NCBI GenBank assembly: GCA_964482735.1
Contig: CAYZYV010000003.1
Location: forward strand, 1-61,096
From: an uncultured Candidatus Saccharibacteria bacterium
GTDB taxonomy: Bacteria; Patescibacteriota; Minisyncoccia; Phycocordibacterales; UBA9973
DNA length: 61,096 bases
Direction: 5' to 3'
Shown here: in pieces, positions 28,322-29,218 of the stretch
Numbering within the stretch: the first letter of the stretch is position 1
Layout of the letters: each line of letters opens with the position of its first letter
The notes under the pieces: generated by a model
Databases searched by the model: none
What the model was told of the DNA's origin: nothing
Seen by the model: the letters and a program-made list of their open reading frames with translations, nothing else
Made by a program: the position numbers and the translations under genes

Positions 28322-29218
28322 ATGGTTATTTATGGTGGAAAATATCTTAAATACAAAAAAGGGTTTACCCCGATAGTAGATTTAGGCGAAGTTCCAACCT
28401 TGGTTGGAACAAGTAAAACTTCATCACCTAAATTCACTACGGGGTTTACCCTCATTGAACTCCTTGTTGTTATTGGAATTATCGGTGTCTTATCTTCTAT
28501 TGTTTTAGTTTCAATAAGTACTGTTCGTGATAAGGCTAGATTGGCAGCAGGTAAACATGGTGATGCAAATATATTACATGGTATAGGAGATCAGATGGTA
28601 GCAGAATGGAAATTCGATAAAACTACGGATTTAACCTTAGATTCCTCTTTACTTGGTCATAATCTAACAACTGTTGGAACTCCTACAAATACAACTGGAT
28701 ATAATGGGAATAATGCTCAAGGTGTAAATAATTCTAGCTATTATACTTTTAATAATCTACCTTTGAACACTAACGTTGGAGAAAAAAACACTGTAACTTT
28801 TTGGATGTATTGGAATGGGACAAATAATACGATGCCGTTTGGCTTTGATTCGATGTATGATTTATATTTTATGGATGGATATTTTGGATTTAATACGTTT
28901 AATAGTGATACGTGGGGGATATATAGCTCAGGTTTAGATAATCGTTGGGTATTTGTTGCAGCGGTTTTTAGTAATGGAGACGTAAGTAAATCAAAATTAT
29001 ACATAGACGGAAAAGAACAAACCATGCTATCCCTAAGAGGTTCTATTGGAAGCAAATCGGTTTCGTCTGCTGGTTTTGTAGGAGCAGGACCAGGTGGGTA
29101 TAGATTTGGCGGTAAAATAGATGATGTTAGAATTTATACGTCTGCTATCACAGCAACAGAAATAAAAAAAATGTACGATGACGGATCACCTAAATATGCT
29201 ATGTTAAATAGCTTTTGA
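28322..29218 (+). CDS. Type IV pilin-like protein fused to a LamG/ConA-like domain
   Basis: GFTLIELLVVIGIIGVLSSIV N-methylation motif; W.FVAAVF, LYIDGK and F.GKIDDVRIY (LamG). Confidence 0.88.
   Translation: MVIYGGKYLKYKKGFTPIVDLGEVPTLVGTSKTSSPKFTTGFTLIELLVVIGIIGVLSSIVLVSISTVRDKARLAAGKHGDANILHGIGDQMVAEWKFDKTTDLTLDSSLLGHNLTTVGTPTNTTGYNGNNAQGVNNSSYYTFNNLPLNTNVGEKNTVTFWMYWNGTNNTMPFGFDSMYDLYFMDGYFGFNTFNSDTWGIYSSGLDNRWVFVAAVFSNGDVSKSKLYIDGKEQTMLSLRGSIGSKSVSSAGFVGAGPGGYRFGGKIDDVRIYTSAITATEIKKMYDDGSPKYAMLNSF
28361..28451. mobile_element. 81-bp palindromic insertion, in frame, in the pilin leader
   Basis: 10-bp direct repeat GGGTTTACCC at 28361 and 28442; internal inverted repeats (CCCCG..TAG/CTACGGGG, ATTTAGG/CCTAAAT, GAAGTT/AACTTC, CCAACC/GGTTGG). 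Confidence 0.75.

Follow-up and report, generated by a model that had tools for sequence, protein, structure and literature searches.

A palindromic mobile-type element in the leader of a type IV pilin-like gene of an uncultured Candidatus Saccharibacteria bacterium probably rebuilds the prepilin cleavage site

The DNA analysed here is a stretch of 61,096 nt, hereafter called the window, from an uncultured Candidatus Saccharibacteria bacterium (GenBank assembly GCA_964482735.1, contig CAYZYV010000003.1, positions 1 to 61,096). The source genome comprises 630 kb in five contigs, with 34% GC and 99.9% completeness, and its relatives are Patescibacteria. A type IV pilin-like gene of the window contains, within the part encoding its leader, a 77-nt palindromic element of a family which we have designated F1. 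The features of this locus are as follows.

28252 to 28297, no strand: terminator-like hairpin of the upstream small ORF, with a 20-pair stem followed by a T run.
28310 to 28315, plus strand: TATAAT, a -10-like box 6 nt before the ATG (sequence).
28322 to 29218, plus strand: type IV pilin-like gene (ATG at 28322, 298 aa, 41-aa leader; PF07963, PF13385, TIGR02532).
28361 to 28363, plus strand: original Gly(-1) codon GGG, residue 14, now within the pseudo-site GFTP; insert-free homologues and paralogs read ...KK-GFTLIELL.
28364 to 28367, plus strand: left copy of the target-site duplication (TSD), TTTA, within codons TTT-ACC (family comparison).
28368 to 28444, plus strand: palindromic element, family F1 subtype a, 77 nt, ends CCCCGATAGTAGATTT ... 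AAATTCACTACGGGG; Y-shaped three-way junction.
28391 to 28410, plus strand: inner hairpin 1, GTTCCAAC-CTTG-GTTGGAAC, 8 bp (helix 3; two-sided changes in 8/8 pairs across the family).
28411 to 28421, plus strand: inner hairpin 2, AAGT-AAA-ACTT, 4 bp (helix 4; two-sided changes in 4/4 pairs).
28442 to 28444, plus strand: new Gly(-1) codon GGG, from the GGGG terminus of the element; predicted cut G41|F42 (sequence and paralog comparison).
28445 to 28448, plus strand: right copy of the TSD, TTTA, which with the host CC-CTC-ATT-GAA restores Phe-Thr-Leu-Ile-Glu.

Profile searches of the 298-residue product place PF07963 at residues 41-62 and TIGR02532 at residues 40-62, and a Laminin_G_3 (concanavalin-like lectin) domain lies at residues 137-282 (PF13385, E = 8e-17). 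The protein reads MVIYGGKYLKYKK-GFTP-IVDLGEVPTLVGTSKTSSPKFT-TGFTLIELL or, parsed differently, MVIYGGKYLKYKK-GFTP-IVDLGEVPTLVGTSKTSSPKFTT-GFTLIELL. This is the layout given by an earlier, sequence-only reading of the DNA, except that 22 residues, and not 23, separate GFTP from TGFT. In total 27 residues have been added, and Gly(-1) is residue 41. As in a class III signal peptide, the product has Gly(-1), Phe(+1) and Glu(+5), along with about 21 hydrophobic residues in a row (G41|FTLIELLVVIGIIGVLSSIVLV). When 81 nt are deleted from the gene the product becomes MVIYGGKYLKYKKGFTLIELL and the leader shrinks from 41 to 14 residues, in agreement with the earlier proposal that removal of the insert restores a canonical KKGFTLIELL. 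The inserted peptide is hydrophilic to neutral, with two acidic and two basic residues. A Peptidase_A24 gene, which adjoins a pilin cluster, is found in the same genome (C1:96007-96345, E = 9.5e-16, within a 273-aa open frame).

The hairpin at 28252-28297 separates the pilin transcription unit from the preceding gene. A simple promoter scan lists just a weaker TAAAAT that overlaps the TATAAT box. Eight pilin paralogs have their start codon 6 nt (7 nt in one case) 3′ of a TATAAT or TACAAT box, and this spacing suggests that the pilin mRNAs are leaderless. The TTG at 28274, listed as an ORF start, is unlikely to be a real one, since it falls within the terminator hairpin. Directly 5′ of the pilin gene there is also a 29-codon ORF (28163-28250; MKKGFVRTIVTFTVIIIVTLVILSFVIPE) with a prepilin-like MKKGF and a hydrophobic stretch, without Glu5; it may be what is left of a pilin gene, or else encode a small membrane peptide.

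The sequence GGGTTTACCC is found at 28361-28370 and a second time at 28442-28451, with a period of 81 nt and both copies in the pilin frame, as had been noticed from the sequence. The 10-nt repeat is real; as a target duplication, however, it does not hold, the comparison of 30 family members giving 4 nt, TTTA. It appears longer because the TTTA duplication is extended by the GGGG end of the element and by the host Gly and Thr-Leu codons. The element itself (28368-28444) is translated as residues 17-41 (P-IVDLGEVPTLVGTSKTSSPKFTT-G).

The insert was correctly described earlier as a nested hairpin, which ends CACTACGGGG. Its fold amounts to -44.3 kcal/mol as RNA (z = -6.5, with 0/200 shuffles as good) and to -17.6 kcal/mol as DNA (z = -5.8). 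The terminal inverted repeats (TIRs) of F1 are CCCCGATAGTAGATTTAGG / CCTAAATTCACTACGGGG, and the outer helix is 95% paired over 64 aligned rows. Two subtypes are distinguished. At inner hairpin 1, subtype b has GTTTCGAT...ATCGAAAC, which is fully compensatory with respect to subtype a; at inner hairpin 2 it has GTTC-TAAA-GAAC. Over the family as a whole, two-sided changes are found in 31 of 38 pairs, and 89% of cells are paired (71% when shuffled, 29-48% when slid), in an alignment that was fitted to the model and holds both strands, which favours the structure. A constant asymmetric defect is seen in the F1 terminal stem (e.g. 28373-28384 with 28429-28440), where GTAGT-AG-ATTT stands opposite AAAT-TC-ACTAC; this is one A.C mismatch beside one G.T pair, it gives the palindrome a polarity, and it could be a nuclease recognition feature. 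Rfam 15 yielded no gathering-score match over 28361-28451 (the best were microRNA-type hairpins of 13-20 bits, where 94-200 are required) and no meaningful family over 28200-28600 at E up to 10. A hammerhead-like core (GATGA...GAAAC) in subtype b was rejected upon inspection; it is absent in subtype a and is merely the complement of the opposite stem.

A covariance model was built from the four F1 copies of the source genome and searched in 101 related genomes. Matches were obtained in 26 of these, the source genome included, and in the other 25 they lie at non-pilin sites: none of the 29 loci inspected outside the source genome is in a pilin, these being mostly intergenic or just 5′ of genes, in both orientations. 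Members of the family range from 37 to 97 nt, reach about 8-10 copies per genome at unrelated loci, and have the consensus ends CCCCGTAGTAGATTTTGGC...GCCAAAATTCACTACGGGG. Flanking direct repeats of at least 4 nt accompany 19 of 31 copies, compared to 4% in shuffled left/right pairings; the modal length is 4 nt, and the duplicated tetranucleotides include TTGA, TCAA, TATA, CGTA and TTTA. The exact F1 pattern gave no match in 100 relatives beyond the source genome, and a strict pattern applied to the whole order added a single genome (G441), which holds a different element, F3.

Within the source genome there are eight leader inserts belonging to two element families, F1 and F2, in seven pilin genes and at one common site. 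Each of the four F1 copies lies in a pilin leader and is open; the codons hit, the orientation and the 81 nt are common to all four. They split into subtypes a and b, whose inner hairpins differ wholly by compensatory changes. F2 is a second, unrelated palindrome (ends CCCCCACACCTACTTTTACAA..., 75-nt period) with the same three-way-junction architecture; it occupies the identical site in three further pilin genes, and is also found in a fourth gene, C2:152858 (minus strand), in tandem upstream of an F1a copy. Twenty-one prepilin-like N-termini were listed for this genome, and most of the pilin paralogs are insert-free, for instance VKKESLKPNKAKK-GFTLIELL. Where a paralog originally had GCA or GCT (Ala) at -1, this Ala is still present in the upstream pseudo-site, and the regenerated codon is GGG.

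The F1 copies of the window and of contig C2 are 90% identical, with upstream flanks 48% and downstream flanks 67% identical; the corresponding values are 97%, 73% and 78% for the two F1b copies, and 100%, 72% and 87% for two F2b copies. Within each F1 pair the two host pilins are unrelated in their C-terminal domains, which are 17-24% identical. Element identity far above that of the flanks, together with unrelated host domains, points to independent insertions of the F1 and F2 copies. For several occupied pilin genes the closest paralog is empty. An exact filled/empty pair is formed by C3:61765 (filled) and C4:14559 (empty), which encode mature proteins 84% identical and are collinear until 71 nt plus TTTA intervene. 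Filled and empty versions of the site, which the earlier reading had suggested looking for, are therefore shown for paralogs; no empty ortholog of the window gene was found. In sister genomes, the leaders of the window pilin's homologues measure 9-12 aa. In metagenomic contigs of a near-identical strain (L209, L211 and L216, 95-99% identical) the orthologous C1 gene retains its F1b insert, and no polymorphic empty site was seen among them. Two of these, L209 and L216 (Ga0209099_1001349 and Ga0116170_10000967), align at 95-99% to C1:9622-26695; the interval C1:12387-12694 is about 0.3 kb here and about 1 kb in both of them, the surplus holding a pilin gene with tandem F1b and F1a.

The double motif proved to be widespread. 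One genome per species (185,579 species) was scanned for TTTACCCC-N45-75-GGGGTTTAC followed by the pilin motif, and at least 116 pilin loci carry CCCC...GGGG inserts at the cleavage site. Among the matches listed, the hosts are Patescibacteria, Omnitrophota, Planctomycetota (Pirellulales and Phycisphaerae), Aegiribacteria and others; the commonest family is a third one, F3 (CCCCGTTAGAAAT...), the same as that in G441. A check set beforehand, namely that the lengths should be multiples of three, gave a clear outcome: the period is divisible by 3 in 85/86 of the matches listed, while non-pilin F1 copies are random in frame, (length + 4) mod 3 being 0, 1 and 2 in 12, 13 and 8 cases. Of the 80 unique elements listed, one has a stop in the pilin frame, compared with 77 and 54 in the other two frames. 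Canonical F1 reads ACC-CCG-TAG, a stop, in both orientations; the pilin copies have an extra A (CCCCGATAG), by which the stop is avoided and the period becomes 81. Extra-A F1 was found at 18 metagenomic loci, seven of them in frame in pilin or pilin-like leaders and the remainder non-pilin with stops; the seven include a GYTLLE-type gene with a TACA duplication (L214) and one gene with tandem F1b and F1a. In pilins, F1 occurs only as this extra-A variant, with a single orientation and lengths that are multiples of three. Selection acts as a filter on the copies that survive at the cleavage site, a site which, once regenerated, can evidently be hit again. In-frame, open inserts also argue for translation that starts upstream and reads through, so that internal starts and ribosomal bypass are ruled out as general mechanisms. 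The start-codon check agrees, in that no start lies between the insert and Gly-Phe and the starts are upstream, at the usual distance from TATAAT; the subtype b insert is free of in-frame ATG, GTG and TTG codons.

These data are best explained by the following sequence of events. F1 would insert at TTTA within the pilin codons GGN-TTT-ACC and duplicate those four nucleotides. The last GGG of the element, with the duplicated TTT-A(CC), rebuilds Gly-Phe-Thr before the untouched LIELL... helix. Since element and duplication add up to 81 nt that are open in frame, translation from the upstream ATG would pass through, giving a prepilin with a leader of 41 instead of 14 residues and an intact class III signal peptide. 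The host prepilin peptidase would cut after Gly41, leaving the mature pilin unchanged and the element phenotypically silent. That the 27 extra residues are probably discarded with the leader is deduced from the intact motif, the Peptidase_A24 gene and the known cut after the conserved Gly. We therefore regard the F1 insert not as a pilin feature but as a non-autonomous mobile palindrome, similar to a miniature inverted-repeat transposable element (MITE), which sits in the pilin leader and rebuilds the cleavage site, with a probability of roughly 0.8. Its mobility is supported because TSDs, non-pilin copies, element identity above flank identity and a filled/empty paralog pair all occur, and the view of the insert as a selfish palindrome in the leader, already taken in the sequence-only reading, is supported.

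No transposase gene accompanies these elements. The candidate partner is a small GIY-YIG nuclease, which the window encodes in a cassette of its own.

9263 to 9577 (about 315 bp), minus strand: mini cassette with inverted repeats CCCCACACCYATATTTTTAT, whose sole gene (about 9279-9533) encodes an 84-aa GIY-YIG nuclease (PF01541, E = 9e-20).

The flanking repeats of this cassette (CCCCACACC...) begin like F2 ends, and solo copies of its repeat end were observed at 18205-18240 and 18332-18371. A second GIY-YIG cassette, with F2-type ends, is located in C4 at the 3′ end of a tRNA gene, the tRNA terminus being duplicated by 9-11 nt. Cassettes of about 0.3 kb in relatives encode nothing but an 83-92-aa GIY-YIG protein, and have ends of the F1 type (L064, L057), the F2 type (L070) or the F3 type (L051, L075, L076); TGAG, TGAA and TTCA are among the 4-nt repeats that flank them. 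The cassette proteins are 48-73% identical to each other and cluster by repeat type. They are 35-44% identical to a GIY-YIG protein of genome G100 that is flanked by hairpins of the NTS type known from Neisseria. This locus (L056, G100:C47:7789-8010), from the same order, has its GIY-YIG gene between hairpins matching the Neisseria NTS/SRM consensus (TCATTCCCGCGAAGGCGGGAATCC), from which it follows that genuine Ssn-type cassettes occur in this bacterial group. An F1-type GIY-YIG cassette was not found in the source genome, where F2-type cassettes and other GIY-YIG genes are present; the four F1 copies may therefore now be stranded. We surmise that the small nuclease probably mobilises the hairpin elements, and that the cassettes themselves may be mobile. 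The window also contains intergenic tandem arrays of a 52-nt unit (CTATTCGTGTCATTCG..CCATTCGTG.ATTTGTGTCGTGTTTG) at 6097-6206, 15663-15824, 18134-18243 and 19293-19451, and because the right flank of the cassette (ATTTGTGTCGTGTTTGAT) belongs to this unit, the cassette may have landed in such an array.

More tentatively, and with less than even confidence on our part, these observations can be extended to a superfamily of tiny elements spread over several phyla (Patescibacteria, Omnitrophota, Planctomycetota and others), for which GGN-TTY-ACC would be a preferred landing site. An Ssn-like GIY-YIG cassette of about 0.3 kb (83-92 aa) would be the autonomous form and a Y-shaped hairpin of 40-85 nt the non-autonomous one, and the prepilin peptidase would erase the product of the latter.

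Several facts weigh against the insertion of a mobile element that is silent in the mature pilin, or against the part assigned to the nuclease. Among 93 genomes of the genus the empty ortholog of the window pilin was not found, the best homologues being 32-38% identical. Prepilin leaders usually have 6-26 aa and are cleaved at the cytoplasmic side, following the conserved Gly (PMC4471445), and the 41-aa leader exceeds that range. The copy at C2:152858 has six C instead of five, by which the upstream GTG is put out of frame; this gene could be a pseudogene, contain a sequencing error, or start at an ATG inside F2, and not every occupied pilin gene is necessarily functional. The link to GIY-YIG rests on common terminal repeats and on co-variation of protein and repeat type. 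Finally, the genome contains 23,321 TTYA sites and 20 pilin motif sites, yet 8/8 copies are in pilins. A 4-nt duplication alone is insufficient for such a placement, so that one has to suppose either additional recognition of the target or strong survivorship. The former is possible and perhaps involves a small GGG-TTTA-CCC hairpin; survivorship in a gene-dense genome (87% is in long open frames) would be another explanation, and the two may act together.

Other explanations of the insert can be weighed against the same data. The hairpin might be a domesticated cis-regulator, either an mRNA structure that lies 40 nt from the start of a transcript, probably a leaderless one, and tunes translation or stability, or a DNA nick or recombination site through which pilin 5′ cassettes are exchanged, with adhesin variation as the outcome. 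We consider this unlikely. The fold is indeed kept by compensatory change between the subtypes and across F1, but such conservation is equally expected if transposition requires folding. The element occupies precisely the point where the variable leader/promoter gives way to the conserved N-terminal helix, and its presence does not track the relationships of the paralogs' C-domains. A parallel exists in Neisseria, where hairpin repeats linked to the GIY-YIG nuclease Ssn cluster near surface-protein genes and modulate recombination of transforming DNA (PMC11893778). A regulator of pilins would nonetheless hardly be scattered, with TSDs, over unrelated non-pilin sites in 25 other genomes, nor be missing from most of the pilin paralogs here, and the occupation of the site by at least three unrelated elements (F1, F2 and F3) fits better with opportunistic insertion.

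An old, immobile feature of single origin, spread by duplication or gene conversion of pilin 5′ ends, would account for the agreement of the four F1 copies in length, orientation, site and unusual extra A, and conversion is feasible on the downstream side, where the N-terminal coding regions are 67-91% similar. It is nevertheless very improbable: identity drops sharply at both borders of the element, the upstream flanks are unrelated (48% between window and C2, the upstream neighbour in C2 being a different element), as are the C-terminal domains of the host genes, F1 occurs with 4-nt duplications at many loci in other genomes, and the extra-A variant is found in pilin-like genes with other tetranucleotides, TACA in L214 being an example. 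We attach even less weight to the idea that the insert is untranslated, with a start inside or after it, or with ribosomes hopping between the GGG-TTT-ACC sites as in phage T4 gene 60. A hairpin placed between matched "take-off" and "landing" sequences does resemble bypass elements, and possible starts exist in the form of an in-frame TTG at 28400 (subtype a), an ATG directly before GFT in the C2 copy and an internal ATG in the G441 element. In that case, however, the frame would be unconstrained, yet all but one of the 86 inserts listed are in frame and 79/80 are open; subtype b is without an in-frame start codon, and no stop follows the first site, as bypass of the gene 60 type requires. Insertion of a mobile palindrome that is translated with the leader remains the explanation which we prefer.

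Other repeats of the window and genome were recorded in the course of this analysis. The sequence-only reading had pointed to a related remnant at about 29893-29920:

29893 to 29922, minus strand: possible degenerate copy of F1 with an internal deletion, between rplJ and rplL, CCCCGTAGTAGA-GCCAAGCTCACCACAGG; uncertain.

The 12-nt CCCCGTAGTAGA at this position is an exact canonical F1 end and unique in the genome; the F1 covariance model gives no significant score at about 29900 (E = 0.9) and the local hairpin is modest (z = -2.5), so that as a remnant the site is weakly supported. A further repeat family starting CCCCGTAGTAAAATTTAAG, with the same first 9 nt as F1, occurs at C3:102216, C3:123819, C4:3783, C4:122805, C1:46459 and C1:23469. 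Perfect palindromes of 37-43 nt (ACAGCCGAGGTCGGACCT.GTAC.AGGTCCGACCTCGGCTGT), followed by TTATCCACAGG, are located at 22162-22204, 22792-22834 and 23587-23623, and similar ones are found upstream of several pilin paralogs on other contigs. Two direct-repeat pairs lie at 35950-36347, one of 46 nt (87% identical) and one of 69 nt (97% identical); they are spaced 92-169 nt and contain a GC-rich hairpin (CTCC-TTCG-GGGG), which may be a duplicated small RNA or regulatory leader.

If the insert is what we take it to be, selfish DNA could persist in a coding region of an essential type at almost no cost, by way of a recreated protease site. This would account for the overlong leaders and GFTP...GFTLIE double motifs in pilin annotations from uncultured bacteria, and long pilin leaders of this kind call for caution in naming new signal-peptide classes. 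Because the inserts are strictly in frame and open, they would serve as an unusually clean natural experiment on how the sequence of a mobile element is shaped by selection. Small orphan Ssn-like GIY-YIG genes are tied to TSD-bearing repeats, and the suspected mobility of such cassettes becomes testable. Should the tentative superfamily be real, re-insertion at the rebuilt site would lead to tandem arrays and very long leaders, and the elements would represent a new transposon class that lacks a classical transposase, as well as a new type of safe harbour whose defining feature is a site of proteolytic processing. In the literature we found no description of palindromic insertions in pilin leaders, or of GIY-YIG transposons with inverted repeats and target duplications; the nearest are the Ssn paper and the MITE review cited below.

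The closest published analogue appears to be the Rickettsia palindromic elements (RPEs; Ogata et al. 2000), which are about 150 bp long, in frame and translated within unrelated metabolic genes, the peptide being retained (summarised in the MITE review PMC10969869). They share with the pilin inserts the in-frame position of short palindromes at tolerant places in genes, and the presence of several families per genome. The pilin elements differ in that they measure 40-85 nt, occupy one exact site, the prepilin cleavage codons, and rebuild it through their terminal GGGG; a peptidase of the host is expected to take off the added peptide, and the host is not Rickettsia. The likeness is one of behaviour.

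Bacterial MITEs (Correia/NEMIS, ERIC, BOX, RUP; PMC10969869) likewise have TIRs, a short TSD, no transposase gene, many copies and longer relatives with the same ends. Structurally F1 is a MITE, being small, multicopy and non-coding, with TIRs, a TSD of fixed length and a filled/empty site (in paralogs). Unlike MITEs, the longer relatives of the pilin elements encode just an 83-92-aa GIY-YIG nuclease and no known transposase, the three-way junction is conserved and covarying, and the enrichment at one codon triplet in one gene family is extreme.

SsnA of Neisseria meningitidis (Chenal et al. 2025, PMC11893778) belongs to site-specific single-strand DNA nucleases which are bracketed by their own hairpin repeats, and its authors remark upon the layout resembling an insertion sequence (IS). 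The same text gives NTS repeats as rarely intragenic (2%), and describes Ssn as a modulator of transformation, not as shown to move DNA. The system shares with ours a small, single-domain GIY-YIG gene between inverted hairpin repeats that are also present as solo copies (the window cassette and the pilin-leader copies), whereas our repeats are different in sequence, Y-shaped and provided with 4-nt TSDs. By inspection, the ends of F1, F2 and F3 have no similarity to the NTS/SRM consensus CGTCATTCCCGCGMAVGCGGGAATCYRG, which is matched only at L056 in G100.

The elements of the IS200/IS605 group and the REP/RAYT and PATE derivatives use HUH (Y1) transposases, make no TSD and insert 3′ of a fixed tetra- or pentanucleotide. 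Recognition of imperfect hairpins, probably as single-stranded DNA, and small palindromic non-autonomous derivatives are common ground, but the elements described here make a 4-nt duplication and are without a HUH gene. The piggyBac-type elements have CCC...GGG tips and a 4-nt target duplication of the T..A type, like those in the pilin leaders, which however have no DDE transposase with them. Inteins, the bypass in T4 gene 60 and the mitochondrial byps are selfish coding insertions that encode or trigger their own removal. They resemble the pilin inserts as insertions into coding sequence which are erased after transcription and leave the mature protein unchanged; the difference is that removal of the pilin insert would fall to a pre-existing host enzyme, acting at a site which the element itself recreates.

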